Positions 4,895-27,151 are shown, counted from the first letter of the stretch. The stretch: DNA of 32,000 nt from an uncultured archaeon (GCA_964354495.1 CAYHAA010000001.1:308075-340074); one strand, 5' to 3'. Made by a program: numbers and translations. The notes: generated by a model from the letters alone, not told the origin.

Positions 4895-5302
4895 GTGTCA
4901 GACGATGATACCGAGCTTGCAATCATTCGCCGTAAGAAAATGGCTGAACTAGTGGCGCGAGAGAAGAGATCGCAGGAAACCAAGGTACAGAATCAGAAGA
5001 TCAACGTGGAGCGCGAGAAGGTTCTGAAACGTTTTCTTGACCCTGCCGCTGCATCGTATCTTGAAGGTCTCAAAACACGTGAACCCGAAGTGGGAAACAG
5101 GATACAGGATATAATCCTCCATTTAATAGTCAATCGTGGTCTACGCCAAACAATCACACAGACTGATGTACGATACATTGAACGGCAAATCAAGGGTGAG
5201 GAACCAACAATTCGCGTACAACGCGACGGCGAAATCTCTGACTTTGGTTCATATGTCCGTGAAGCCATCAAAAAGAATAGCAGCGATTCAGAATCAAATT
5301 AG
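4895..5302 (+). CDS. PDCD5-like double-stranded DNA-binding protein with a C-terminal extension
   Basis: GAGGT RBS + GTG; 'DTELAIIRRKKMAEL...VLKRFLDPAAASYLEGLKTREPE...IT' follows the PDCD5/MTH1615 pattern. Confidence 0.75.
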   Translation: MSDDDTELAIIRRKKMAELVAREKRSQETKVQNQKINVEREKVLKRFLDPAAASYLEGLKTREPEVGNRIQDIILHLIVNRGLRQTITQTDVRYIERQIKGEEPTIRVQRDGEISDFGSYVREAIKKNSSDSESN

Positions 5303-6201
5303 CCCAAAGCCTGTGCACGAGCCTTCCATTCTCTAATGGTATATTGTAGTTCCTCTACACTACCTGAGTGTTTTTTCCAGGAATCAGCAGTTCTCATCAT
5401 CTGGAAGATAAGGGCTCCACCTCTTGCGAGTTTCTGCTCGAGAACCTCGACTGCTGTCTCTATTGCGAGGACAATGCTCTTGTTGTCATCTGTCTTCTGC
5501 AGGAGCTCTTCGAGTTCTTCGAAAACTTGGGGAGGATCAAGTTGTATCCACTTGTCCCTTGGTACGATTACTTCTCTGTACTTGACTGCTGGAATAACGG
5601 TATGCCCTTCTCTTATCTCAACTTCGCCGTCAGTCTGAAGGGCTTCACAGTACTTTAGGGCTTGCGTCATATCAAGGACAAGACTCGAAGCGATCTCCTC
5701 CAATCGCACCGTCTTTCGATTTAGGACCATATTCAAGATTCGATATTTTTGGTCTCCATATTCCGACAAGACTTGCCTAAGCTTTTCTTGAGCGCCTTCT
5801 CCCTGATTCAGGACTGAGGTGGCAGCTTGCGAGAGGATTTTCAAGTCTTCTCTCAGTTTCTCAATCGTCATCTCTGCATGTGCCAGGTTGTTTCTCAGAG
5901 TCTGGCTCTCTGACTGTGGTTGTTTTTTCGCCAGAAGATGTATCTGCTCGGATTTGATACCTTGCATCTCCTTGCCAACCGTTTCAAGTGCTCCCTTTGT
6001 TTTTGCGAGCTGAGATTCGAGCATCTTAATCTGAGATTCACGTTCTGCAAGAGATGCCTCCAATTCGGTAACTTGCGTTCCTAGCTGATTTGTTCTCTTT
6101 TGAGACCCGTTGAGCTGAGCCTGCAGAGCATCTACCTTCTGATTAAGGGAAGCAATCTGCACAGTCTTTTCGCGTAGTCGTTGGTTGATGTCTTCTGACA
6201 T
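5299..6201 (-). CDS. hypothetical protein: long N-terminal coiled coil + winged-helix + C-terminal helical bundle
   Basis: Heptad-rich residues ~1-140; wHTH-like 'YRILNMVLNRKTVRLEEIASSLVLDMTQALKYCEALQTDGEVEI'. ATG 6201 preferred over 6228, which lies too close to the AT-rich TATA-like element. Confidence 0.7.
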   Translation of the reverse strand: MSEDINQRLREKTVQIASLNQKVDALQAQLNGSQKRTNQLGTQVTELEASLAERESQIKMLESQLAKTKGALETVGKEMQGIKSEQIHLLAKKQPQSESQTLRNNLAHAEMTIEKLREDLKILSQAATSVLNQGEGAQEKLRQVLSEYGDQKYRILNMVLNRKTVRLEEIASSLVLDMTQALKYCEALQTDGEVEIREGHTVIPAVKYREVIVPRDKWIQLDPPQVFEELEELLQKTDDNKSIVLAIETAVEVLEQKLARGGALIFQMMRTADSWKKHSGSVEELQYTIREWKARAQALG

Positions 6202-6280
6202 GACAATTCCACTAGTTTGTGCATCCATCGATAATTAAAGGAGCTTCGTGCAAACTTGGAATCCCTTGGAGAATCTGCAA

Positions 6281-7071: not shown

Positions 7072-7863
7072 ATGTACCAGCGTCGATACCTAGAAGTGAA
7101 TGGCGAATCTCTCAAGCAGCCCGTGGCTCTTGTCGGTTTCCCTGGAATCGCGGATGTCGGTAGAATTGCCGTAGAGACCCTGATTCGGGTCCTAGACGCA
7201 GAACACATGTGCGATCTCTTCAGTAAGGACTTTCCACCACGAGTGCTAGTGCAGAATGGCATAAGTGCGATTCCAAGGGCGAGTATCTATCTATATCGGG
7301 CTGCGCCTGATGAGCCGCATGATTTACTCATTCTCACAGCGGACTATCAGCCATCGACGAGTGCTGGTGTCTATGAGTTTGCAGATTTCATAGCTGGCGA
7401 ATACAGCGCACTTGGAGTCAAGGAATTGTTTGCTCTTGCTGCCTATGAACAGAGCTATGAAGACTACTTCAACTCATACCCTGCGCCTCCACGAATCTAT
7501 GTGTCTGCTAGCTCAGAGGAAATGCTTGGTAGACTTTCAGCATCGGGCAATGTTGAAGTTATTAAAGAAGGCTCGATTGTCGGAGCAAATGGTGTGATAC
7601 CCTCCTGGGCCTCAACGCTATACAACATGGATGGAGCGTGCTTGCTAGGCGAAACACTCGGAGTGATTAAGACTGATTACCGCGCTGCAAAGGCTGTTCT
7701 GGAAAAGACAGTGAGTATCGTCGGTATGACCGCGGATTTTGACGAAATGGACTCCGAGATTACTAAGGTAACTCAACTCATAGAATGGGCAAGGCAGGAA
7801 ATCAGCCAGAAAAAGGGACCATCTCAAGACGATAGTAGTCCTTCAGACCTGTACATCGGATAG
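7072..7863 (+). CDS. PAC2-family proteasome assembly chaperone
   Basis: LVGFPGIADVGRIA, FPP.V, ILTADYQP, G.IVGANG, GACLLGET, DYRAAKAVL. Confidence 0.88.
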   Translation: MYQRRYLEVNGESLKQPVALVGFPGIADVGRIAVETLIRVLDAEHMCDLFSKDFPPRVLVQNGISAIPRASIYLYRAAPDEPHDLLILTADYQPSTSAGVYEFADFIAGEYSALGVKELFALAAYEQSYEDYFNSYPAPPRIYVSASSEEMLGRLSASGNVEVIKEGSIVGANGVIPSWASTLYNMDGACLLGETLGVIKTDYRAAKAVLEKTVSIVGMTADFDEMDSEITKVTQLIEWARQEISQKKGPSQDDSSPSDLYIG

Positions 7864-9395: not shown

Positions 9396-10007
9396 TCAAC
9401 CTATCTGTTTCCATTCGAGCATTTTCATATCCTCGAGTGTATGAAGCGACTTCTGAACTTCCTTAGTATGTCTACCAAGTTGATCAGCGATGTTTTGCGT
9501 TGTCAACATGCCTTTGCACATCTTGGCAACATCATACGTATCTTGGCTCATTTGGCCGAGTCTCACAAGCATCGGCGATACTCTTCCTTTTAGCACTGGC
9601 ACAACAATCTTGGTTTCAGACGCGTGTCCGTCCTTTGTGATTTCATCGAGACTCTTGTTGAACTTCTCGAAAGGCTCCAAGTTGCCGTCCCAAGTCACAA
9701 GCATTGCCCCGTAGATGCTAACGAATTCGTTGTTGACCTCGGCTAGAACTGCCATTGCCGCGTTTCCGTCGTCTACCTTGTCGACAATTGCCGCAACTAT
9801 GACATTGTCCTTTAGGGAGAGACAGATATCAAAGGCACCAAAGTCAATCACATGGACTCTGTTTCCATAGCTCAGTTCTCGGCCAAACTGAATCAGAGCA
9901 GTCAGAAATCCACTGATCAAGTTCGGATCCATATCTGCTGACCCGTATTTTCTATCCAGAACACAAAGTCCACTGTCAGCGACCAATATGTAGACAGCTT
10001 GAATCAT
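9396..10007 (-). CDS. longin-domain protein with a C-terminal winged helix
   Basis: Longin signature 'IQAVYILVADSGLCVLDRKY...DPNLISGFLTALIQFGREL'; C-terminal 'VAKMCKGMLTTQNIADQLGRHTKEVQKSLHTLEDMKMLEW'. Confidence 0.8.
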   Translation of the reverse strand: MIQAVYILVADSGLCVLDRKYGSADMDPNLISGFLTALIQFGRELSYGNRVHVIDFGAFDICLSLKDNVIVAAIVDKVDDGNAAMAVLAEVNNEFVSIYGAMLVTWDGNLEPFEKFNKSLDEITKDGHASETKIVVPVLKGRVSPMLVRLGQMSQDTYDVAKMCKGMLTTQNIADQLGRHTKEVQKSLHTLEDMKMLEWKQIG

Positions 10008-13882: not shown

Positions 13883-15214
13883 TCATTTCAGATTATGTTT
13901 CTTCACAAACTCGGTCAAAATATCCACAAGGTCCGGTTTCCCAATCTCCTGCAAGTCATATCTGACTCTAACACTAGGCTTGGTAATGTTGACTACACGG
14001 TTCAGGTCAATCGGTGTTCCGATTACCACTGCATCCACATCCGCCTTGTTGATGGTTTCTTGGAGTTCAGATACCTGCTTCTTTCCGTAGCCCATCGCGG
14101 GAAGAACATTCTCAAGATGACCGTATTTCTCGAAAGTGTCTCTGATACTTCCAACAGCAAACGGCCTTGGATCCACAATTATGGCTCCGGCCTTCCTTGC
14201 AGCTATGAACCCAGCACCATAGGGCATCTCCCCGTGTGTTACGGTGGGTCCATCCTCTACCACAATGACTCTCTTTCCGCGAATCGATTCCATCTTTTCG
14301 ATTGTGAGGGGTGATGCTCCATCGATGATGATTGCCTTGGGATTTACAGCCATAATGTTCTCTCTGATCTCTTCCACATCCTCATAGTCTGCAGTGTCAA
14401 TCTTGTTGATGATAACTACATCCGCCATCCTAAGGTTTGTCTCGCCTGGGTAGTATGATACTTCGTGACCAGGCCTGTGAGCATCAGCGATGACAATGAG
14501 TAGGTCTGGCTTGTAGAACGAGAAGTCGTTGTTGCCACCATCCCATGTGATAACATCCGCTTCTTTTTCTGCCTGCTCAAGAATCTTGCCATAGTCCACT
14601 CCTGCGTAAAGAATGACTCCCATATTGATCATGGGCTCATACTCCTCACGTTCCTCTATCGTGCACCTATACTTGTCCATGTCCTCCAGGTTCTCATACC
14701 TCTGTGCAATCTGCGATGTGAGGTCTGGATCATATGGCATCGGGTGCCTGATGTTGACCGGTTTGAGATCCATATCCACTAGAATCTGGTTCACGCGTCT
14801 TGACGTCTGGCTCTTACCGCAACCTGTCCGAACAGCACAGATTGCCACAACTGGCTTCTTGCTCTTTATCGAAGTCGTTTTCGGACCCATGAAACGAATA
14901 TCAGGACCGAGCTTATTGACCCAGGCTATTTTGTGACCAACCACCTCATATGGAAGATCCGAATAGGCGAGAATACACTGCTCAACATCGAACTTCTTGA
15001 TTAGTTCTGGCAGTTTCCCTTCAGGATATATCTTGATACCTTTTGGGTAGAGTGGCCCCGCAAGTTCTGGAGGGTACATTCGATCTCCGATTCCAGGGAT
15101 TTGTTCAGCAGTGAAGGCCACAACCTCATAATCTTCGTTATTTCGGAAGTAGACATTGAAGTTATGGAAGTCGCGACCAGCGGCGCCCATGATGATTATT
15201 TTCTTCTTGCTCAT
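13883..15214 (-). CDS. arcE: ArcE-like arginine synthetase (COG2403 P-loop 'GTPase' family)
   Basis: Family signature IMGAAGRDFHNFN..F....YEVVAFTA.QIP.I..R.YPPELAG.LYP.GI, Walker A RTGCGKS, WDGGNND, VEDGPTVTHGEM. Confidence 0.75.
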   Translation of the reverse strand: MSKKKIIIMGAAGRDFHNFNVYFRNNEDYEVVAFTAEQIPGIGDRMYPPELAGPLYPKGIKIYPEGKLPELIKKFDVEQCILAYSDLPYEVVGHKIAWVNKLGPDIRFMGPKTTSIKSKKPVVAICAVRTGCGKSQTSRRVNQILVDMDLKPVNIRHPMPYDPDLTSQIAQRYENLEDMDKYRCTIEEREEYEPMINMGVILYAGVDYGKILEQAEKEADVITWDGGNNDFSFYKPDLLIVIADAHRPGHEVSYYPGETNLRMADVVIINKIDTADYEDVEEIRENIMAVNPKAIIIDGASPLTIEKMESIRGKRVIVVEDGPTVTHGEMPYGAGFIAARKAGAIIVDPRPFAVGSIRDTFEKYGHLENVLPAMGYGKKQVSELQETINKADVDAVVIGTPIDLNRVVNITKPSVRVRYDLQEIGKPDLVDILTEFVKKHNLK

Positions 15215-15536: not shown

Positions 15537-16091
15537 TTGTTGAAGCTAGTTGAATTGGCTCTGGAGTCAGTCAGGATTCTGAAGGATGCAGGGGAGGCCG
15601 GTATCAAGAGCGACATATTAGCTCAACGGCTCAATACTCCTAAACGCAGAGTGTATGATGTCATCGCTGTTCTAAGGTCTCTAGGCCAAGTGGATACAAG
15701 TAGAAAGTTCGATGGGACAACGATTGTATGGATAGATCATTCAAAGGATTTCATCCCAAGGCAAAATCATGAAGAACTGCGAGTTCGGCTGAATCAAGAA
15801 AGTGAGGAACGCAAGCAGTTTCAAGTCCAAGTAGCAGAGTTAAAAGAGCAACTCAGAATCACAAAATCCAAACTCAGAAGAGATGTCCAGGCTATTGAGA
15901 TGGTAAACAAGACCGAGTTTCTAACGACACAACTCCGGGTACGTGCACTATCAAGTAATGGAATCAAGAAGGTCGAACATTCGGGAATCGAAGTCCTCAT
16001 TGAGACCCATGAATCCGGCATGGTGGCTGACCCAACTGAACTAGAGGTTGACGAAAACGCAGCTCTTCTGAAGAACCTGCAGCGCATATGA
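15537..16091 (+). CDS. E2F/DP-like winged-helix transcription factor with coiled coil and a beta-rich C-terminal domain
   Basis: GGGGTG RBS + TTG; KRRVYDVIAVLRSLG...IVW matches the E2F/DP RRxYD recognition helix; coiled coil follows. Confidence 0.75.
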   Translation: MLKLVELALESVRILKDAGEAGIKSDILAQRLNTPKRRVYDVIAVLRSLGQVDTSRKFDGTTIVWIDHSKDFIPRQNHEELRVRLNQESEERKQFQVQVAELKEQLRITKSKLRRDVQAIEMVNKTEFLTTQLRVRALSSNGIKKVEHSGIEVLIETHESGMVADPTELEVDENAALLKNLQRI

Positions 16092-16483: not shown

Positions 16484-16554
16484 ACGTCTTCCTTCGTGTA
16501 TCGCCCTAAAATGTGCTGCGCTTAGTTCTTCGGCAAAGGCTTAATTGGACACAT

Positions 16555-17709
16555 ATGGTGGTAGATTTGGAGAGAACGAGACTGCCATCTACCAAGCTTG
16601 ATGTCGCATTTGTTGTTGACACAACTGGATCAATGAAAGATGATATCAAAGCGGTGAAGGACAGTCTCTCTGAAATAGTGAGCCATATCACATCACGAAC
16701 GAAGGACCTTGGGATTAGATTCGGCATCGTTTCATACCGCGACCATCCTCCACAAGATAGATCCTATGTGACCAAGTATTTCGACTTCATAGACAATGTG
16801 AAACGAGTCCAAAAGATCATTGCTGATCTTCAACCATCTGATGGAGGCGACACTCCCGAAGCGGTCGCTGATGGTCTATTTGATGCACGCACAAAGCTAT
16901 CTTGGGAGAAGGATGCTTACAAAGTACTGCTTCTTGTCGGAGACGCACCTCCACATGGGAGAAGATACAATTCTCTCGGTGATGACTACTTTGTTGACGG
17001 CTGCCCGGATGGTCATGATCCGATTGAAGAAGTGCAGCAGCTGAGAAAGGATTTTGGTACGACGCTGTTTATTTTCATATGTGGCTGCAACCCGCTTGTT
17101 GAAACAGCATTCCAACAGATTGCAGATTCTGTTGATGGTGGCAAGTATTACTCATTGTTGGAGGCACATGAACTTCCAGAAGCAATTCTGAAGATACTTG
17201 AGGGAGTCAGTAATCTCATTGAAGCCGATAGGAAAGTCTTGTCCTACTATCAAGCTAATGATGGGACGTTCGATATGGGTGAGGCCGCTTCGAAGCTCGG
17301 TCTTGAGGTCCGTGAACTGAAGACTTCTCTATCTAGGCTCCTTGAACTTGGCAGAATCGTACGATGGCCAAAGGGGAGACCTCTCACATCTGAGCAAATA
17401 GGCATCTCTGTGAATCTTGGTGAGATTCCGAACAACATAGTCGCTGGAAGAGCCTTCAACTACTCTATCAGAGTCAAGAATCCAAGTGCGGCTATTGGGA
17501 GCATCAGGGTGGTAGTATCACTCGTCACAGCCGAGGGTGTATCTGAGGTAACGAATGAGCGTCATGACATAGCGGCCAAATCTGATAAGAAGCTCGAGCT
17601 CAAGCTCGTTCCAATGACTGATGTGAGAGAGAAAGCGACGCTCCGAGTTGAGGTCTTCTATGGCTCAAAATCAATTGCCACTGAGATCTACTCGACACGT
17701 ATCTACTGA
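16555..17709 (+). CDS. vWA-domain protein (intact MIDAS) + winged helix + C-terminal Ig-like beta sandwich
   Basis: LDVAFVVDTTGSM, GGDTPEA, LVGDAPPHG; wHTH 'FDMGEAASKLGLEVRELKTSLSRLLELGRI'; beta-rich tail. Start uncertain (16513, 16555, 16567 or 16582). Confidence 0.85.
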   Translation: MVVDLERTRLPSTKLDVAFVVDTTGSMKDDIKAVKDSLSEIVSHITSRTKDLGIRFGIVSYRDHPPQDRSYVTKYFDFIDNVKRVQKIIADLQPSDGGDTPEAVADGLFDARTKLSWEKDAYKVLLLVGDAPPHGRRYNSLGDDYFVDGCPDGHDPIEEVQQLRKDFGTTLFIFICGCNPLVETAFQQIADSVDGGKYYSLLEAHELPEAILKILEGVSNLIEADRKVLSYYQANDGTFDMGEAASKLGLEVRELKTSLSRLLELGRIVRWPKGRPLTSEQIGISVNLGEIPNNIVAGRAFNYSIRVKNPSAAIGSIRVVVSLVTAEGVSEVTNERHDIAAKSDKKLELKLVPMTDVREKATLRVEVFYGSKSIATEIYSTRIY

Positions 17710-17722
17710 TGGAGGACTACCT

Positions 17723-18877
17723 TTGATTCTAATCGCCAAACAGGGACGGAATCAGAAAGGTCTCTGCTTTGTACCCGCTGACGAACCTGATTATGAACCG
17801 GGTGTCTACGAACTCAGCTTTCGGGAACGCACACTTCTTGCTGACGTCCGCAAGTCAGCTCAGGTTTCCGATAACATGATTATTCTAGATAGTCGTGTGT
17901 TTGCCATGATGAATTGCAGCGATGGGTCTGAAATATCACTTACGCGAATCTGCGACGATTTGCCGGTCTGCAGAGAACTTGGGTTGGCTGTGGCATCCAC
18001 AAAGTCCCTAGATAATAATGCAGTAGCTAATGCAATCTCAAAGAGGGTCAATGATCTCCAGGAAGACTTTGATGGACTAGTGCTAACAAAGAATCAGAGG
18101 ATTCTGCTAGGACGCCTTGGAGTTCAACTCACAGTGGACTTACTCAAACCAGTGGATGATGGACACCTTTCTTGTCGATTAAGATGGAGCAGTCTTGAGA
18201 AGATACACCTTGACCCAGGAGTAGAAGCTCCAGCATACAACCTCATTTGTGTGATTGAGCTTGGAGCGGCAGCCCACATTACTGATGTCCTGCAGTCCTC
18301 TACGGGTGGTGATTCGGTTTCAGTTCCCCGGTATTCCGCTGCAATTGAACTTCTACATCAGATTGAACTCGGCTACTCCGGATATGGCACAGGAGCTCAA
18401 TTCTCAGGCATTGCGTATTCAGACGAGGTGGTAACCTATCCGATGTTTGATTCGGAATCAGGACAACTGGTCGAGATATCACCACTTCACTCAAAGTCTA
18501 TGTTGGAATCATTTAGAAACTGGATTGGCGAAGTAGCTCCCACGCATGGCCGCAAATCCTCGAATCCCGGTGCCGCTTTGAACGCCGCAATCGAGCGGGC
18601 ATTGGGCATACCGGATTCAATCGATCACCCTACGATTGTGGTTCTCCTCTCAAGCGGTACGCATTCATCTGGCCAAAACCCGTTGAAGATTGTGAAAAAG
18701 AAGGGGGAGAACAGGTCCGTACCAGTGTTATGTTTTTGCCTGGGAGAAGATTCAAACAGGGATATGATGAAGGCAATTGCAGAGTACACAAAAGGAATTG
18801 CCGTCGAAATCACTGACATGGGTCAAGTGAATATGGTCAATGAACGGCTTGCGGAGTGGTTTCGAGATAGGAGTTGA
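17723..18877 (+). CDS. CDC48/NSF-N-like domains + vWA with a degenerate MIDAS
   Basis: GGAGG RBS + TTG 17723; 'NMIILDSRVFAMMNCSDGSEISL' double-psi-barrel pattern; vWA strand 'YNLICVIELGAAA' lacks DxSxS; alignable to 24694..25989. Confidence 0.65.
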   Translation: MILIAKQGRNQKGLCFVPADEPDYEPGVYELSFRERTLLADVRKSAQVSDNMIILDSRVFAMMNCSDGSEISLTRICDDLPVCRELGLAVASTKSLDNNAVANAISKRVNDLQEDFDGLVLTKNQRILLGRLGVQLTVDLLKPVDDGHLSCRLRWSSLEKIHLDPGVEAPAYNLICVIELGAAAHITDVLQSSTGGDSVSVPRYSAAIELLHQIELGYSGYGTGAQFSGIAYSDEVVTYPMFDSESGQLVEISPLHSKSMLESFRNWIGEVAPTHGRKSSNPGAALNAAIERALGIPDSIDHPTIVVLLSSGTHSSGQNPLKIVKKKGENRSVPVLCFCLGEDSNRDMMKAIAEYTKGIAVEITDMGQVNMVNERLAEWFRDRS

Positions 18878-20040
18878 TTCCTGTGAAGGACGATTTGCCA
18901 ACACGACTTCAAGCTATGTTCCATAGTGGAGAAATCACTGAATTCATCTCTGCACAGATGCCTACAGAAAAGCTCAGCACGGGATGGATGGAACAAGGTC
19001 TTCTTCTCAAGGGCTTCACTGGAAAGCTGGAGGATAGAAAGAACCAGGAACAACTCATCATTCCTGCTGACAGATTTGCACGTTTGACAAGAGACCTTGA
19101 AGGGCTATCACGACCATTTGTCGGCCTGTTAATCCTAGGCAGTCAAGGTCTAGTTACGCCCAAGTTGTGCATCGTGGTATACGACGCACTCGAGGAAAGC
19201 AGCAAGCCAATGATGACTGTAGCCTTCTGGACCAAGAACTTGAGCTTCAGTGAAATCACTCGTATCATAACACAGCATGTGCTAGGACATGGCATTTCTA
19301 GTAGAAAGACTGAGCCGGACTTGGATTACATAGAACAACTTAGAGCAGGTGTTTCCACTGGTGAAGTTCGAAGTCTACTCTCTCTCAAGGTTCCCGCAGA
19401 GAAGCAGAATGTCACAGAATGGTTTCGTGATTCCGCAAAGCAAGTGAATGGATCTAAAAGAGCAATTGCGGCTGAGGGGGACCTGAATAGTCTGTCGAGA
19501 ATCACACTTCTTCTCGCTCGCTGGTTGACAAGCCTCGACCTTTTCAAGAGAGCCAAGAACAATATCGCAGCTATTCTCTTCAAGTTCAGTGATAGAACAG
19601 AACTCTGCCTGTGGGATAGCCCTCATGGCATGGCTTCGTTTGCAGCATTGAACAGAACTGACATTGAAAACATGATTGATAGATATGTGACGCCCATGTG
19701 GTCCGGTTCACAGGATTTTGGCGTGTCTGGTGTAGGTGCACCAGAGGTTGTAATTGGAAAGAGAACAGAATCACGAGAAGAAAACCGTAAGTCGAAAGTC
19801 ATGGCATCTCATCAGATAGATCATACTATCCTAAGTCAGATTAGAACGAAACTGGAAATGCTAGAGACTCGCCTTCAAGCCCTAGAAAACGCACCAGGAG
19901 ATAAGACAGTCACTACTGACCAGTCAATAGCAATTGTACAAACCAAGCTTGCAGAAACGATTAACCGTCTTGAATCTGTTGTGGCTAGATTGAGTGACCT
20001 AGAATCGCGTATAAAGCGTGTGAGTAAGTCTGCAGGGTGA
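18874..20040 (+). CDS. hypothetical protein with C-terminal coiled coil
   Basis: 4-nt overlap with the upstream gene (translational coupling); heptad-rich last ~70 aa. Confidence 0.7.
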   Translation: MIPVKDDLPTRLQAMFHSGEITEFISAQMPTEKLSTGWMEQGLLLKGFTGKLEDRKNQEQLIIPADRFARLTRDLEGLSRPFVGLLILGSQGLVTPKLCIVVYDALEESSKPMMTVAFWTKNLSFSEITRIITQHVLGHGISSRKTEPDLDYIEQLRAGVSTGEVRSLLSLKVPAEKQNVTEWFRDSAKQVNGSKRAIAAEGDLNSLSRITLLLARWLTSLDLFKRAKNNIAAILFKFSDRTELCLWDSPHGMASFAALNRTDIENMIDRYVTPMWSGSQDFGVSGVGAPEVVIGKRTESREENRKSKVMASHQIDHTILSQIRTKLEMLETRLQALENAPGDKTVTTDQSIAIVQTKLAETINRLESVVARLSDLESRIKRVSKSAG

Positions 20041-20338: not shown

Positions 20339-22979
20339 AGCTAGCTGGTACAAGTTCTTCAACGACATCAAGAATGTGCCCAATGAAGGTCTGTGAAGAG
20401 AATGAGTCCAACGGTGTGACTCCTGCATTTACTTCCTTCAAGAATCTCAAGGCATCTGTAGGGGGTCTATCTTTTTCCAAGGTCACGAATTCGATTTGAT
20501 ATCTCTCACGTTCTTTGATAGCTTTGATGAATGGGATATGCTCCGCGTCATCTCTTCCCACGCCCCCTGAGATAACGAGTATCAACGTTGGCCGTGAGGC
20601 TCCAAAATCGTCCAGATATTCTGCAATGGTTCTATAGGCCCCGGCCATGTCTTCTCGACCTGCGCTATCTTTCACAGAATCGAGAATTGAGTAGATCAAA
20701 GACACAAGAACTTCCTCTGATTGAACGTCTCCAAGAAACTCCATATATGACCTAATCTCGCTACCATGTTGGACAGAGAACTTTGAAGGTCCCTCTGCGA
20801 ACGTAGCAAAGCCGAACCTGCCCTCAGTATGATTGTGTCTGAAGAGATTGATGACCAGCAATGCCCCTAGTGCCGCAATCTCTGATCTTGACGCATCCTC
20901 AGTGAGGTCATCAAGGAATACCTTCAACTCCCCTATTCGCCTTGCGAGAGGCTCAAGTTCTCTTGTTGCCGCGCGAATGGTTTTCAGTTTTATATCACGT
21001 TTGCTCATATCCTTACACGTGGAGATGCAGAGTACAACATTCAATTCGCGAAAAGCCTGATTTGGTCTTAAGAACACCTCATCTTCTGGAATGACACCAA
21101 TCTGATCTGAAACGAGCTCTGGCTCTGTCTGTGTCATATTGAGAGTCACCGGAAGCTTCTCTGAACCCACGAAAAGTCTGGAACTAGAACCAACCAGTCT
21201 TCCTCTTATCCGGTCAAGAACCTCGCTTTCATTTAGATGCATCCAGGAAAACAACTCTTGATTGGACGTTCGTCTGTCTGAGCAGTACGCCATCACAATC
21301 CTGTGGATATCAGAGATTTCCCCTTGGAACTTGACAATGTTGACAACAGAGGACGTACTGAATCCATAGATTTCTGCGTCAGTTTCTGAGATGACAATCA
21401 TTCTTTCAGCGCGCATATCATGCTCCCTCACACGACCCGCGCACCATCTCCCAGTCCTTGTGCCAAGTACTAGCACATAATCATCATTCAACAGATTTAG
21501 CGATTGCATATCGGAAGAGGCCATAAGGAATACCCCGGGGTTCGTCTTCGCAATCTCAACCCCAAAATGAAGAGCAGACACGAGTTCCTTGCGGTCTTCT
21601 ACCTGGAGACAGGAGAGCAATGCATCATCAAATTGAGCTAGGTGTGCTGGCAAGCCAAAGACGGGCCCGTCAAGTTTTGCATTTGCACACACAAGGGTCT
21701 GTAGTAGCATGCTGTCCCTCTTTGATATGCTCTCTGTAAATGCCTTCTTCCATCCTGAGACCATCACGGCACCGTTCTTTTCTAGCACGATTGAGATGCT
21801 TGTCCCTTTCTCGCCATTCGGCCCGCTCACCGTTACAACAACGCTATCCAGCTGGACCGTTCCTCCCTCGTCATCAACCATGTGGTCAACTGATACTACT
21901 CTCAGAATCTTCTTTGCATCAAGTAGTTGCAGGACTCGAATAATCTCATTCATGGCGGCTTTTCCAAGACTCTCTTCAGCCATGACCGATGTCTTGTTCT
22001 CTGTATATACTAGGAATGGGGGTCGCGGAGGCAGTAATGACAACATGTTTCCACCAAGGACTCTCTGCACTTCCTCCGGCGAGGCTGCCAGATTTCTGCT
22101 CAAGAAGTAACTGATTATTTCTGATACGCTATCCCCCAATTGCGTTTCAGGATATGATGAGGCAAACATAATCCGCTTTGACCAGAGCAGGTCCTTTTGC
22201 TCGCTCTTCATGTAATTGATTGAAGTCGATAGGGACGATATCGATGCACCTGCTGTAAGAAGCGTGCTATCTGGAATGTCAAGAAGACGAGTGATGGATT
22301 TTCCCCAGTCCTTCTGGCTTCTCACCTTCAGCACAAGTTTCGGAGCCTTTAGGCCTGCCTCTTTGAGAAGTACCAACCACTCAAGAAGCAAATCCAGATT
22401 CTCTGAAGAGGTGAGTTCCATGAACACAGGTCTCTCAGATTTGATGTGGTCAATCAAATCCGCGCGATTGGGCCCCTTTAGTGCGAGAGGCAAATTGGCT
22501 GCGCGTAGGATACATCCCCATCCTGGTGGTGTTCTCCGGTTCTGCCTCATGTCTTGCAGATGATAGACTCTAGGGCTTGTGGGTGGAACTGTTGACCATC
22601 GGTAGACAGACTCGGTATTCGCATTCTGTTGGGCAACCGGAAGGGCTGTTTCACCTAGATCAATCAGCGGGTTTGCAACGAGTAGATCGACCAGCCAACT
22701 TGACTTAGACAGCTCCGACGCATCTTGAGAGAAGTCGGTAAGAAATCTGGGCTTCTTTAGATACTCATAAGCCCTTCTTGGGACGTACCTAAAGGCTCCA
22801 GAATAACTGGCAGCAAAGTCATGAAGTTGATTTTCAACCATAGTATAGTATGAGAATGCCCTGTCAGGGTCGAATGTTCGTATATACGTTCCAGCGCGTA
22901 CGATGCCAAGCTGTAAGGACGCGTCCACGACAAAGAAGCGGCGGATTTCGTTTGCTTCAATGTCTTCCACAACAATCAT
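20316..22979 (-). CDS. fusion protein: inactive amidohydrolase-like domain + CDC48-N-like domains + degenerate vWA
   Basis: Colinear similarity to 23125..24630 (VVDASLQLG vs IVDAHHHMG; WSKRIMFASSY vs WSEKILFGTDY; QRVLGGN vs QRILGGN) and to 24694..25989 (LNVVLCISTCKDM vs FNAVLCIDTSGSM). ATG 22979 with GGAG RBS (ORF track TTG 22988). Confidence 0.75.
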   Translation of the reverse strand: MIVVEDIEANEIRRFFVVDASLQLGIVRAGTYIRTFDPDRAFSYYTMVENQLHDFAASYSGAFRYVPRRAYEYLKKPRFLTDFSQDASELSKSSWLVDLLVANPLIDLGETALPVAQQNANTESVYRWSTVPPTSPRVYHLQDMRQNRRTPPGWGCILRAANLPLALKGPNRADLIDHIKSERPVFMELTSSENLDLLLEWLVLLKEAGLKAPKLVLKVRSQKDWGKSITRLLDIPDSTLLTAGASISSLSTSINYMKSEQKDLLWSKRIMFASSYPETQLGDSVSEIISYFLSRNLAASPEEVQRVLGGNMLSLLPPRPPFLVYTENKTSVMAEESLGKAAMNEIIRVLQLLDAKKILRVVSVDHMVDDEGGTVQLDSVVVTVSGPNGEKGTSISIVLEKNGAVMVSGWKKAFTESISKRDSMLLQTLVCANAKLDGPVFGLPAHLAQFDDALLSCLQVEDRKELVSALHFGVEIAKTNPGVFLMASSDMQSLNLLNDDYVLVLGTRTGRWCAGRVREHDMRAERMIVISETDAEIYGFSTSSVVNIVKFQGEISDIHRIVMAYCSDRRTSNQELFSWMHLNESEVLDRIRGRLVGSSSRLFVGSEKLPVTLNMTQTEPELVSDQIGVIPEDEVFLRPNQAFRELNVVLCISTCKDMSKRDIKLKTIRAATRELEPLARRIGELKVFLDDLTEDASRSEIAALGALLVINLFRHNHTEGRFGFATFAEGPSKFSVQHGSEIRSYMEFLGDVQSEEVLVSLIYSILDSVKDSAGREDMAGAYRTIAEYLDDFGASRPTLILVISGGVGRDDAEHIPFIKAIKERERYQIEFVTLEKDRPPTDALRFLKEVNAGVTPLDSFSSQTFIGHILDVVEELVPASSTPEFDA

Positions 22980-23124: not shown

Positions 23125-24630
23125 ATGCTCATCGTCCGAGCAGTTGAGGACCAGCCATCAAGAGGCATAAGGAAAGGTGATGAGTTCAGGCTCTACATCG
23201 TAGATGCACATCACCATATGGGGAAAGAGAAAAGCCATAGAAACACGCCTTCGGGTGCCTACGCCTTCTACTCCCAATTATGGTTTGAGATGCAGAAGCT
23301 TGCTAAGGTCCTCAGAGAAGAGGACGCTCTTCTCTTCGAACCAATTGGAATAACAGCTGGTGATTTCGCCAATCGTTGTTTCAAAAGCCAAAAGAGTTGG
23401 GAGAGGCTGAATCATGGTTGGTTAATAGATAGAACTGTTGTATTCCCTTATACTGATGACTATTCCACCTCCGAATCAGCCAATGAGCCTTCGTTCAGAG
23501 TGTCGAATGATAAAATCGCAGGATGGACAACTCGTGCACCACACTCGACGCGGCTAATCGGATTCGCACGGGTCAATCCCCTGGATGGTACAGGGAACAA
23601 AAATATTGCAGTGAGCGAGCTCGAACGGAGTGTTCTGAGCCTTGGATTGCGCGGTCTAAAACTGCACCCTCTTGCACAGCTCTTTCTTGATTCCATCGAA
23701 GGTGAACTAACAAGGAACGTTGTGAAGCGAGCTGGTGAGTTAGGAATCCCTGTTATCTTCGATACGAGAAATATTGGCACCGTCATGCGTATCAAGAATC
23801 TTGTAGAATCGATGCGGAATGATCCCGACTGCGGAACAGCCATCAGGGGACTGAAGGTGATTCTCGCTCATTGTGGAATGTCCCCTGGTGATACACATCT
23901 TTTCGACGCGCTTCGTGACCCAGCGATCTTTGCTGAAACTTCAACGCTACATGACCTCGATGTTCCTGTTCTATTCGAATCTGCAATCGAGCGTCTGGGC
24001 CGATTCGGCACTCCATGGTCGGAGAAAATCCTCTTTGGGACAGACTACAGCTTTCTGTCCGTTCAGGCTGCTGATGTCATTCTCTACCTTCTCTCGCGAA
24101 AATTCTCTGGAACTCTGACCGATGCTCAACGAATATTGGGCGGGAATGCATTGATGTTGGTCCAAAAGCCTTTCGCAACTAAGGGTGGAGCTCCAACTCC
24201 TCCGGTCGAATATGTCTGTCTGGACCATGACGGGTCTAGACAGGTTCAGTTAGAGAATTCGCTGTTATCACTCATAAAACGGGATGTCTGGGACCTCTGT
24301 TCTCTCGATCTAATGCTGCCTCCGAATGGAACTTGGCCCGAACTGCTGCCTATTTCAAGAGGAGGTTTCAATGGTGTTTACCTTGACTCCTATGTGTTGA
24401 GTCTAAGGACACGAACGGGGGATAGAGAGATTCATGTCTGGATTCGTAGGGGCCCAGGCAGTTCTCTCACTTGTTCGCTCTTGGGTACGTCCGGGATGAT
24501 ACGGCTTGAAACCACTCAGAATGCGTCTCAGGGTATCAATCCCGTGCTGATGCGGTCTCTGAAAGACCATTCTATCACATTGAAGACAGGGAAGGATTTA
24601 CAGGATAATGTGTTATCATACTTTGATTAG
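23125..24630 (+). CDS. amidohydrolase-2-like metallo-dependent TIM-barrel hydrolase with C-terminal extension
   Basis: GGAGG RBS; IVDAHHH, GFARVNP, GLRGLKLHP, ILAHCG, AETS, ILFGTDY. Confidence 0.85.
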   Translation: MLIVRAVEDQPSRGIRKGDEFRLYIVDAHHHMGKEKSHRNTPSGAYAFYSQLWFEMQKLAKVLREEDALLFEPIGITAGDFANRCFKSQKSWERLNHGWLIDRTVVFPYTDDYSTSESANEPSFRVSNDKIAGWTTRAPHSTRLIGFARVNPLDGTGNKNIAVSELERSVLSLGLRGLKLHPLAQLFLDSIEGELTRNVVKRAGELGIPVIFDTRNIGTVMRIKNLVESMRNDPDCGTAIRGLKVILAHCGMSPGDTHLFDALRDPAIFAETSTLHDLDVPVLFESAIERLGRFGTPWSEKILFGTDYSFLSVQAADVILYLLSRKFSGTLTDAQRILGGNALMLVQKPFATKGGAPTPPVEYVCLDHDGSRQVQLENSLLSLIKRDVWDLCSLDLMLPPNGTWPELLPISRGGFNGVYLDSYVLSLRTRTGDREIHVWIRRGPGSSLTCSLLGTSGMIRLETTQNASQGINPVLMRSLKDHSITLKTGKDLQDNVLSYFD

Positions 24631-24646
24631 CTTGAACCTCATATTC

Positions 24647-24691
24647 TTTATAACAACACGAACAGATGAATTCACGTTCTACAAGAGGAGG
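24647..24691 (+). promoter_or_regulatory. TATA box (TTTATAA, 24647-24653) and Shine-Dalgarno (GAGGAGG, 24685-24691) of the N-domain-vWA gene
   Basis: Archaeal TATA consensus at a suitable distance upstream of a strong SD and the open frame. Confidence 0.5.
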
Positions 24692-24693
24692 CA

Positions 24694-25989
24694 TTAGCCA
24701 TCACCAAGAAACTCCAATTAGAAATCGTAGATGGCGGAGACCTTAGGGGCTTTGCTAATCTCCATCCAAGGACTGCCGATTCACTTGATGCAGACATTGG
24801 CTCAATAGTCATTTTCGAGGATCCCCAAAGTAGTTTCTGGGGAGCAGCAGAGATTCGAAAGAGCAATGATGCATCCGAAGACCGGATTGTGGTTGACACA
24901 CTTGTTCTCGAGGCCTCACTACTGATGGAGGGTGATACTGTCGAGGTCACACTGTATGATGCGGATATGGTAGCTCTCGAATATGTTGAGTTTGGACTCA
25001 AACCCCTTACCGAGAATGCCAATACAGAGGACCTAGTTTCAAGGGCTGCTGAGAAGGTCAGTTCACTGGAAAATATCATTGGCGGGCGCCTTGTCTACCC
25101 CGGAATGTCATTCAACTGGCCAGAGCTTGACGTCAAGGTTGAGATACTCAATACAAGACCGGCTCTATCCGGGAAGAGCTTTGCGAAGCTTGCCTTTGAA
25201 GCCCTTCGGGAACGAACTGGGTATGAGTTCAAGACTGTAGGTATTGCAACTCCTTTCAATGCAGTCCTATGTATCGATACTAGTGGCTCTATGAAGACAA
25301 CCGATGTCCCGGTCCAGGACATCGCTCATGCCCGTGAGGGTTTGAAGGATTTGGCTGGTGATAGTCCCGAAGTGCAGGCCTTTCTGGGACGTTTTGAGGA
25401 GGGCAAGAACGTTAGCCGTGCCGAGGCGGCAGCAATGGCAGTGCTTCTCTATCTCGCAGAGAAGGTCGGTCGCGGCTACGGTGAGAAGGTCGGAGTAATC
25501 ACCTTCGAAAAAGATGTCAGTGAGATGACCTTTCTGAACTCTGAGACTGGTGAGGCTCAACCATTCGTAGAATGCACAGGAAGAGAAAAGGCACTGGGTC
25601 TACAGATAATCAGCACTCATGTCGTGGACAAAGTGGAGGAGGGCGGAACGCTGACTGATATGGGGTCAGCTCTTGCAAAAGCCAGTGACATAATCGGTGA
25701 ATTCGGAAACCCCGAAAAACCGACAATGCTCATTATGCTCACTGACGGAATGACGACTTCGGGTCCACCTCCTCTGAAGGTGCTCAAGGAGAGGTTTCCC
25801 GATAAGTCGAAACTGGCGATATACAGCATTGGCCTAGGAGAAAGAAGCGAAATTGATGAGGAATTGATGCTGGCCATTGCTCAGTATGGAAATGGGACCT
25901 ACCGTCATGTGGATAATATGAGGGACCTGCTTGAATGGTATGGTAAACTTGCAGGTGAATTCGCAGTCGTAATACGTGGCGCCGGATGA
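24694..25989 (+). CDS. CDC48/NSF-N-like (double-psi barrel + alpha/beta subdomain) + vWA with intact MIDAS; DEPDC5/Iml1-N-like architecture; non-canonical start
   Basis: Frame open from 24670 and encodes LAITKKLQLEIVDGGDLRGFANLHP...EDRIVVD before the ORF-track GTG at 24889; MIDAS DTSGS, GTLTDMG, LTDG; YSIGLG; GNGTYRHV. Confidence 0.8.
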   Translation, partial: LAITKKLQLEIVDGGDLRGFANLHPRTADSLDADIGSIVIFEDPQSSFWGAAEIRKSNDASEDRIVVDTLVLEASLLMEGDTVEVTLYDADMVALEYVEFGLKPLTENANTEDLVSRAAEKVSSLENIIGGRLVYPGMSFNWPELDVKVEILNTRPALSGKSFAKLAFEALRERTGYEFKTVGIATPFNAVLCIDTSGSMKTTDVPVQDIAHAREGLKDLAGDSPEVQAFLGRFEEGKNVSRAEAAAMAVLLYLAEKVGRGYGEKVGVITFEKDVSEMTFLNSETGEAQPFVECTGREKALGLQIISTHVVDKVEEGGTLTDMGSALAKASDIIGEFGNPEKPTMLIMLTDGMTTSGPPPLKVLKERFPDKSKLAIYSIGLGERSEIDEELMLAIAQYGNGTYRHVDNMRDLLEWYGKLAGEFAVVIRGAG

Positions 25990-25996
25990 AATCAAA

Positions 25997-27151
25997 TTAA
26001 CGTGGTTCCAAGGCTTGAGCAAGCCCTTCGAGGGTTTCCAAATCCATTTCCTTGATTTGCTCCTCAGGTATTCCCTCCAACATCACCTCAGGAATAGAAA
26101 CCAGGATCGCAGCTTTTTCCTTCCCATATTTCTTTGTGAATTCAGCCATTCTGGGGTCTTCGGTTACTGCTTCTGGTGCGGGTACTTCAATTGGCTTTTC
26201 AACTGCCTTACTGTCACTTTTGCTTGTTGAAGCAAGTAATGCCTCTAACTCCTCAATACTGAGAGTCTTCAGTGTTTCATCTGAAACTGACTCTCGAACT
26301 TCCTTTGGCAGTTTTCTGATGAGAGCCTCGCGAGTTGGTCCTGCTGTCTTCTTCTTGACTGTTGTTACTTTGCGTACTTTGACAGTCTTCTTCTTCTTTT
26401 CCGGAGGGAGCGTTGCAGCCTCCAGCTTGGAAACCAACTCTCTAGCCGATTTGGGAGTCAATCGTTTGAGGTCTTCAGGCGGCAGAGTACCAATTACTTC
26501 CTCCGGCAGTTCGGCTAGGATCGATTCAACTTCCTTGGAGAGCCCTGGAACTTCAGGCTTTGCCTCAGAGGTCTTTCTCTCCTCAGTCAAAAGTATGGGC
26601 GTGGCTTCCAGCTCCTCGACCAATGCGCTCCTATCAATCTCAACATCGAAGTTGCTGGACCGCCATTTAAGGAACCTATTGATGGCATCAGGCCTCATCT
26701 TGATAGAAACGAGCAATTTGTTGATGTCTTCATCGGGCATGTCTGGGAAGTTATTCAGTATTGTATCGATACTGTCTTTGGATACCCGTGCCCATATTGG
26801 TCCATTCAACAGTCTTGAAAGGCCTGAGGCACAATGGGATCTTACCCAGGTGTTCGGGTCCTTCAGTCCTTTCATAAGGACCGGAATTGTGCGTGGCTGA
26901 TGATAGAATGTCAGTGCTTGAGCTGCTGCGATTCTAACATCTGCAACATCGTCTTCCATGATCTTGGCAATTTCATTCACAAGTGCAGGATCTGCTGCCT
27001 CAACCGCTGCAATCAAAGCCCGTTCCCGAACAGTATCCGATGTGTCTGCGAAAGCGCGAATGAGAGCTTTCATCTCTTTCGGATCTGTTCTGGCGAGAAG
27101 ACCAATCTCGTCTGTATTGAATTCCAATAACAGTCTTCTGGTTTCGGGCAA
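25997..27151 (-). CDS. HEAT-repeat protein with Lys-rich linkers and three C-terminal ~33-aa helical repeats
   Basis: GGAGG RBS + TTG; HEAT units VRERAL, DVRIAAAQAL, WVRSHCASGL; repeats listed under findings. Confidence 0.8.
   Translation of the reverse strand: MPETRRLLLEFNTDEIGLLARTDPKEMKALIRAFADTSDTVRERALIAAVEAADPALVNEIAKIMEDDVADVRIAAAQALTFYHQPRTIPVLMKGLKDPNTWVRSHCASGLSRLLNGPIWARVSKDSIDTILNNFPDMPDEDINKLLVSIKMRPDAINRFLKWRSSNFDVEIDRSALVEELEATPILLTEERKTSEAKPEVPGLSKEVESILAELPEEVIGTLPPEDLKRLTPKSARELVSKLEAATLPPEKKKKTVKVRKVTTVKKKTAGPTREALIRKLPKEVRESVSDETLKTLSIEELEALLASTSKSDSKAVEKPIEVPAPEAVTEDPRMAEFTKKYGKEKAAILVSIPEVMLEGIPEEQIKEMDLETLEGLAQALEPR

Follow-up and report, generated by a model that had tools for sequence, protein, structure and literature searches.

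The Cdc48N-vWA protein (N-vWA) is encoded on the plus strand of a 32,000-nucleotide (nt) stretch of DNA from an uncultured archaeon (GCA_964354495.1, CAYHAA010000001.1:308075-340074). This whole stretch is referred to as the window, and positions are counted from its first letter; the host belongs to Thorarchaeota, among the Asgard archaea, and its genome is 3.3 Mb in size and 97.7% complete. Here, we propose that N-vWA, which is predicted to join an N domain of the Cdc48/NSF type to a von Willebrand factor A (vWA) domain, is probably a metal-dependent adaptor of a module whose other components are a ligase and a metal hydrolase. The three genes occur in the same families of Asgard archaea, lie close to one another in distant lineages and are in places fused. 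An initial annotation had read the protein as an archaeal ancestor of the scaffold of the eukaryotic GATOR1 complex, DEPDC5/Iml1, and we weigh this proposal below.

The fold of N-vWA was modelled by AlphaFold2 with an alignment (A2) of 59 diverse relatives, which had been collected by searching 1.84 billion representative proteins. The model of the whole protein has a mean predicted local distance difference test (pLDDT) of 92.3 and a predicted template modelling score (pTM) of 0.84. In this model, a Cdc48/NSF-type N domain leads into a vWA domain, and the latter has all residues of a metal-ion-dependent adhesion site (MIDAS), which is conserved in the family. The N domain is built as in Cdc48 and NSF, with a double-psi beta-barrel (strands 6-13, 20-23, 38-42, 49-56, 64-67 and 82-88, residue numbers being counted from position 24694) and then a beta-barrel subdomain. 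Foldseek aligned it to isolated p97 N domains (~170 aa) over 171-190 columns with template modelling (TM) scores of 0.69-0.74 and root-mean-square deviations (rmsd) of 3.3-4.0, and a profile of this part matched designed double-psi barrel proteins at E 3.5e-6 and Cdc48 at E 1.1e-5. The Pfam model CDC48_N found 23 of the 59 relatives (best E 2.5e-7); it gave no match in the whole protein, and the N-terminal 190 residues alone did not fall below E 10.

The vWA domain has both the fold and the metal ligands, i.e. the DxSxS motif, the Thr and the Asp, of a MIDAS-type domain. That the site is intact had been claimed in the initial annotation, and the claim is upheld by the alignment, in which the five ligand residues are invariant or nearly so. 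A profile made from Thorarchaeota only (14 sequences) gave generic vWA matches and nothing else among PDB sequences. The combination of domains sets N-vWA apart from the proteins that share one of them. Cdc48, p97, VAT and NSF have the N domain in common with it, but carry AAA+ ATPase rings where N-vWA has the vWA domain and no Walker motifs. Compared with MIDAS-type vWA proteins (bacterial 4fx5, BatB, ITIH1, TFIIH p44/Ssl1, archaeal ArnB and the Sec24 trunk), N-vWA adds the N-terminal Cdc48-type domain and a ~40-residue insert after strand 1, and unlike them it has no signal peptide or membrane anchor. It does not belong to Sec23/24 or TFIIH p44/Ssl1, which combine the vWA/trunk with one or more zinc fingers and, in Sec23/24, also with beta-sandwich, helical and gelsolin domains, as N-vWA has no zinc finger and no beta-sandwich or gelsolin domain.

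Of 400 genomes of the Asgard phylum, 262 have a member of the family, as do 67 of the 90 high-quality ones. The full architecture is present in ~51 clusters at 50% identity, and all clusters named by organism are from Asgard archaea (Thor, Odin, Hel, Hermod, Heimdall, Promethearchaeota) except one from a metagenome-assembled genome (MAG) of Korarchaeota. Orthologs with 64-97% identity bear Thorarchaeota names, with a mean column identity of 80%. We know of no paper that describes the N-vWA family, though no literature search was aimed at it.

Directly upstream of the N-vWA gene is the gene of an amidohydrolase-fold hydrolase in which D27, H29, H31, H181, H249 and D307 are invariant in 20 orthologs, i.e. 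the metal ligands are kept, and a hydrolase ortholog directly precedes the N-vWA ortholog in distant Asgard lineages too. The third component is a carboxylate-amine ligase of the GCS2/YbdK type. The single match to it in the genome, at C1:342192-343571 in a frame of 1144 aa, begins ~2.1 kb and ends ~3.5 kb beyond the end of the window. In the same 400 genomes that hold 262 with N-vWA, the ligase is found in 251 and the hydrolase in 251. All three are present in families f1-f3, f11, f13 and f15-f23, and the ligase and the hydrolase are absent from the other families in this set. N-vWA is absent from f4-f8, f12 and f24-f30, with weak matches only in f9, f10, f14 and one further family. Within Thorarchaeota, the genus g15 (96-99% complete) has none of the three. 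Hydrolase, N-vWA and ligase lie within ~6.5 kb of one another in several distant families (G001, G115, G117, G125, G126 and L001), and in Heimdall loci the ligase is flanked by two or three N-vWA paralogs.

Fusions are found as well. N-vWA is joined to the hydrolase in an 890-aa paralog of the window; to the ligase in P0194, which is 33% identical to neighbouring ligases (E 1e-45 to 1e-56); to a second vWA domain in P0161, from another Asgard lineage, whose C-terminal part is 31% identical (E 1.8e-31) to the separate vWA protein of the window; and to a ubiquitin-like domain, near a JAB gene. Complex prediction for the hydrolase and N-vWA gave a score of 0.54, as compared with 0.00 for the best of 3 controls, with at least 82% of contacts agreeing between runs and a partner pLDDT of at least 77. 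Of 80 solved complexes, 58 attain the mark that this score reached, as against 2 of 110 mismatched pairs; only 7 of the 80 solved complexes, and both of the mismatches that passed, did so with scores of 0.60 or below. We know of no similar complex.

Several observations weigh against the adaptor reading. The complex prediction passed weakly, and lends weak support to a predicted assembly of the hydrolase with N-vWA. The N-vWA gene has a conserved TATA-like box and Shine-Dalgarno sequence of its own, so that it need not be co-transcribed with the hydrolase gene. In f22 the N-vWA gene is often on another contig or tens of kb away from the ligase-hydrolase pair, and some N-vWA loci have no partner nearby. 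The phyletic match also suggests more independent gains and losses than there are, because related genomes do not count as separate cases.

To explain how N-vWA may act, we infer a cytosolic two-domain adaptor with the Cdc48/NSF-type N domain in front and the MIDAS vWA domain behind. It would be one of three co-inherited components, together with the amidohydrolase-fold hydrolase and the ATP-dependent GCS2/YbdK-type ligase, and its most likely role would be to bind the hydrolase and to bring hydrolase, ligase or their substrate together. The N domain could offer a cleft that binds peptides or ubiquitin folds. The MIDAS could hold a divalent cation, for which an acidic side chain of the partner would be the last metal ligand, and so serve as a metal-dependent clamp. 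With a ligase and a hydrolase at hand, the module could form an amide bond on some target and remove it again. A functional analogy, and an analogy only, is found in PafA and Dop, the Pup ligase and depupylase, which belong to the carboxylate-amine-ligase superfamily, attach an isopeptide mark and take it off again, and act together with a recognition protein. In the Asgard module, a GCS2-type ligase and a metal hydrolase are co-inherited with the putative adaptor. The hydrolase of the module, however, is an amidohydrolase TIM-barrel and not a ligase paralog, and no gene for a Pup-like tag was identified for the module.

The initial annotation had noted one dead paralog. A MIDAS-dead paralog is indeed present, but the window has two. 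In the 890-aa paralog, which likelier starts at the ATG at 22979, both halves are inactive: HxH is replaced by SLQ and DTSGS by STCKD, and the HxH/Asp ligands and all five MIDAS residues are gone. Its kinship is seen in BLASTP matches to the upstream amidohydrolase (E 4e-9) and to N-vWA (E 8e-13); Pfam searches with pieces of this protein, and with the C-terminal extension of the hydrolase, found nothing beyond a weak Amidohydro_2 match. The second dead paralog aligns with the family alignment in hhalign over 339 columns (probability 99.2%, E 1.4e-19). A scan of the host genome found three N-vWA paralogs only, all of them in the window. It is conceivable that the two MIDAS-dead paralogs are non-binding or regulatory subunits of the same assembly.

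Longer forms exist elsewhere in the family. In f22, the largest Asgard family sampled, the N-vWA open frames are ~550-780 aa long, usually ~720-780 aa. The long representatives P0130, P0136 and P0137 carry extra Cdc48-type N domains ahead of the N-vWA unit, with 2-3 matched stretches each, and the AlphaFold DB entry A0A5B9D9Q0 (724 aa) is matched with a TM of 0.83 over its residues 312-721. The C-terminal extensions of the eight longer relatives that were scanned hold ubiquitin-like, zinc-ribbon or ligase domains. A family member with a C-terminal ubiquitin-family domain is encoded at L007:265-1977, in another Asgard MAG, with a JAB/MPN gene (L007:3174-4004) two genes off.

That N-vWA has the domain order of the N-terminal half of DEPDC5/Iml1 was claimed in the initial annotation, and the AlphaFold2 model and the full-length Foldseek matches bear this out. 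Against the PDB, chains of DEPDC5 and yeast Iml1/Sea1 take ranks 1-10 (E 2.3e-14 to 1.4e-11, 420-490 columns), followed by p97/NSF N-D1 at ~1e-10. Among 2.3 million AlphaFold DB clusters, the two best matches are to members of the protein's own family, and eukaryotic DEPDC5/Iml1 N-termini make up most of ranks 3-21; against Swiss-Prot models, DEPDC5/Iml1 from mouse, human, yeasts, Drosophila and Dictyostelium makes up most of the top 27. Residues 1-383 of the query align to the first ~370-450 residues of these matches. In both proteins, the ~380-430 N-terminal residues hold a Cdc48/NSF-like N domain and then a vWA-like alpha/beta domain. Judged from the model, the likeness is real at the level of architecture, and no other family in the libraries searched shares it.

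At the level of single domains the picture is different. The profile of the N domain scores Cdc48 at 28.1 bits (E 1.1e-5) and DEPDC5 at 22.3 bits (E 6.8e-4), the latter being a sum over two stretches of a tandem two-copy chain, so the N domain is not closer to DEPDC5. A sequence-profile match to DEPDC5 (26.5 and 22.3 bits) at first seemed better than that to Cdc48. It comes from chain 9xzy_H, a tandem DEPDC5 entry of 3384 residues, and was not counted as specific because its two matched stretches are most simply two copies; single-copy DEPDC5 chains were not among the 60 matches listed. HMMER does align the double-psi barrel of the family with the beginning of DEPDC5, yet it does so through generic barrel motifs, to which Cdc48 is the better match. 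In the AlphaFold DB clusters, the best match to the N domain only reached 1e-11 and the best to the vWA domain only 1e-10, while DEPDC5, with both domains, reached only 7e-15. This is weaker than the two single-domain matches combined, which implies that at least one domain of DEPDC5 is a much weaker match than its generic counterpart. In Swiss-Prot models, archaeal Cdc48 N-D1 follows only 1-2 orders behind DEPDC5 (E 1.7e-12 to 4e-11), and here the second domain has an unrelated AAA fold. The DEPDC5 matches have a TM of ~0.4, an rmsd of ~10 A and 10-13% identity, and from the first two of these values the relative placement of the domains is not common to N-vWA and DEPDC5. With VIA-align on the whole model, the best partners of the vWA domain were generic vWA domains; DEPDC5 was not among the 50 entries listed, which is an absence from the list and not an exclusion.

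Other marks of the Iml1 family are missing. The Pfam model IML1 (PF12257), proposed in the initial annotation as a check, had no match in the protein or in its 59 relatives, and none up to E 10 in a six-frame scan of the genome. No DEP domain was found in the genome (best E 0.5) or in the extensions of the eight longer relatives scanned, and the Pfam model NPR2 likewise has no match in the genome. DEPDC5 has SHEN, DEP and C-terminal domains after its SABA domain, whereas N-vWA ends after the vWA domain; its MIDAS is intact, whereas SABA is MIDAS-less on the premise of the initial annotation. The partners of DEPDC5 are NPRL2/3 and Rag GTPases, and the conserved partners of N-vWA are the ligase and the hydrolase. 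Its conserved neighbours include no longin, NPR2 or Rag gene; the genes of Rag-like GTPases are on other contigs or separated from it by at least 90 kb. It had further been suggested that the dead paralog is nearer to SABA. The model of the C-terminal half of the 890-aa paralog (pLDDT 93.1) matches p97 N-D1 at 1e-12 and DEPDC5/Iml1 at 2e-12 to 1e-10; the two interleave and score equally, and at TM 0.24-0.29, lower than for the live protein, this paralog is no closer to SABA than the live protein is. Membership of the Iml1 family fails on every feature of sequence and accessory domains that could be tested. The initial annotation had named a DEPDC5 score no better than that of generic CDC48-N and generic vWA domains as the outcome that would count against it, and this is largely what we observed. 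Its DEPDC5 reading stands as regards the collinear architecture; the score of the N domain and the lack of an IML1 signal, of the accessory domains and of GATOR-like neighbours tell against it.

Could N-vWA nevertheless be a true homolog, and the archaeal ancestor, of the N-terminal half of DEPDC5/Iml1? By this account the first eukaryotes would have inherited the two domains already fused, the MIDAS would then have been lost, and the SHEN, DEP and C-terminal domains would have been gained to give the GATOR1/SEACIT scaffold. We regard such a descent as unlikely, though worth keeping in mind; it concerns ancestry and can hold alongside an adaptor function. In its favour, the ten best full-length PDB matches and the best non-self matches in the other two libraries are all to DEPDC5/Iml1, no other cellular family with this collinear architecture scored higher, and the N-vWA family hardly occurs outside Asgard archaea, where NPRL2-like longin proteins and Rag-type GTPases have also been reported (bioRxiv 10.1101/2020.10.19.343400; PMC12290439). 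The literature also likens the N-terminal domain of DEPDC5 to Sec18/NSF and its SABA domain to Sec23 (PMC8534245). Against it, neither domain appears specifically closest to DEPDC5: the N domain prefers Cdc48, and the best partners listed for the vWA domain are generic vWA domains; archaeal Cdc48 N-D1 comes within 1-2 orders of DEPDC5 and p97 ties with it for the dead paralog; the superposition and identity values are low; and IML1 and DEP matches and longin or Rag partners are absent, as described above. Among known structures, the NTD-SABA half of DEPDC5/Iml1 comes nearest to N-vWA in layout; this likeness of architecture may or may not reflect shared ancestry. In a full-text literature search, no Asgard relative of the large subunit, DEPDC5/Iml1, came up. 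As the N-vWA family is the only prokaryotic candidate to come from these structure searches, the question is now testable. If descent were true, the scaffold of a eukaryotic amino-acid-sensing GTPase-activating protein complex would derive from a protein that served an archaeal ligase-hydrolase module as its adaptor, and the later loss of its MIDAS would parallel the loss already seen in the two paralogs of the window.

N-vWA may instead serve an archaeal ubiquitin-like or Cdc48/proteasome pathway as a receptor or cofactor, in the manner of the vWA protein Rpn10 or of Cdc48 adaptors, with its link to the ligase and the hydrolase being secondary. We consider this improbable. Fusions to ubiquitin-like domains occur in two clusters only, and neither these fusions nor other members of the family have a C-terminal Gly-Gly or a Pup-like end. 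No gene for ubiquitin, E1, E2, JAB or the proteasome adjoins the N-vWA gene in the window, and co-inheritance with the ligase and the hydrolase is far more general. More improbable still is that it belongs to a conflict or defence system built on vWA proteins, as do other clusters of several vWA genes in prokaryotes: vWA paralogs, inactive copies and variable fusions are clustered here, and one N-vWA locus adjoins TIR, SIR2 and LRR genes, but for a conflict gene it is unusually well conserved across Thorarchaeota, most Asgard families keep the locus stably and by vertical inheritance, and no nucleoside triphosphatase (NTPase), nuclease or other effector is among the conserved neighbours (PADLOC was not searched).

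The start of the N-vWA gene is unusual. The frame at 24694-25989 on the plus strand is open and gives 431 residues when read from 24694, where the initial annotation had placed the start; this codon is TTA, two codons ahead of the probable start, and there is no ATG, GTG or TTG in frame between the stop at 24667 and a GTG at 24889. In nine aligned Thorarchaeota genomes, which span several genera, an ATC at 24700 is invariant within an invariant ATC ACC AA, and the 8 nt between GGAGG and this ATC vary and do not keep the frame. As it is invariant, stands 8 nt after an invariant GGAGG and follows variable nucleotides without a frame, the ATC is the probable start codon. The conserved ATTCTTTATAAC block is situated in the 63-nt gap 3' of the amidohydrolase gene, and its TTTATAA, ~47 nt ahead of the ATC, is read as a putative promoter of the N-vWA gene. 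A conserved non-canonical ATC start behind a strong ribosome-binding site is an oddity in its own right, and suggests that translation is deliberately low or regulated.

Table 1. Coordinates of the N-vWA gene, its predicted elements and domains, and related genes in the window.
Feature	Position	Strand	Remarks
N-vWA gene	24700..25989	+	probable ATC start to stop, 429 codons plus stop; open frame
TATA-like box TTTATAA	24647..24653	+	in the conserved ATTCTTTATAAC block, nearly invariant in nine Thorarchaeota genomes
Shine-Dalgarno GGAGG	24687..24691	+	invariant in 9/9 aligned Thorarchaeota genomes; 8 nt ahead of ATC
N-domain subdomain 1, double-psi beta-barrel	24706..24963	+	residues ~5-90
N-domain subdomain 2	24976..25239	+	residues ~95-182; matches Cdc48 Nc beta-barrel, plus linker to vWA sheet
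vWA domain	25240..25986	+	residues 183-431; ~40-residue insert after strand 1 is helical
MIDAS DxSxS (D195-T-S197-G-S199)	25276..25290	+	D195 invariant, S197 and S199 at least 90% in 59 relatives
MIDAS Thr, T321	25654..25656	+	nearly invariant in 59 relatives
MIDAS Asp, D351 (in LTDG)	25744..25746	+	invariant in 59 relatives
Partner amidohydrolase-fold (Amidohydro_2) metal hydrolase	23125..24630	+	Pfam E 2.9e-12; ~150-aa C-terminal extension
Fused doubly inactive paralog, 890 aa	20316..22988	-	dead amidohydrolase + middle region + Cdc48N + MIDAS-less vWA
Second MIDAS-dead Cdc48N-vWA paralog	17648..18877	+	ELGAA for DxSxS, LLSSG for LTDG; exact start uncertain
Separate vWA protein (VWA_4 / integrin-beta-like)	16513..17709	+	Pfam E 1.8e-12; first gene of the same cluster

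Among the other genes of the window, the run of vWA genes at 16513-20040 ends with a gene at 18874-20040 (+) that overlaps the stop of the preceding paralog by 4 nt and encodes a 388-aa protein with a C-terminal coiled coil and a weak DUF7310 match. On the other side, a HEAT-repeat protein (HEAT_2, E 1.4e-11) is encoded at 25997-27151 (-), convergent with the N-vWA gene and with 7 nt between the stop codons. A 184-aa protein at 15537-16091 (+) matches the winged helix of the E2F/DP family (PF02319, E 1.2e-7, 31.7 bits against a cut-off of 25.7). Two open reading frames were considered as GATOR-like or longin context and rejected: that of 443 aa at 13883-15214 (-) resembles cyclic 2,3-diphosphoglycerate synthetase instead (PDB 9sxb_A, E 3.8e-6), with a weak match to CobW/HypB-type NTPases as well, and the Longin match of the 203-aa frame at 9396-10007 is sub-threshold. 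Further upstream, a protein of the PAC2 family, the proteasome assembly chaperone family, is encoded at 7072-7863 (+) (E 4.6e-28), and a 309-aa coiled-coil protein at 5299-6228 (-), whose ATG16/ATG14/ATG17-like matches are all sub-threshold. These two genes are ~840 nt apart, with a TatD gene between them.

A module of three genes, for a GCS2-type ligase, an amidohydrolase-fold hydrolase and a putative MIDAS adaptor, occurs in roughly two thirds of the Asgard genomes sampled and appears to be lost as a unit. It may be a system that marks proteins or metabolites in the closest archaeal relatives of eukaryotes.

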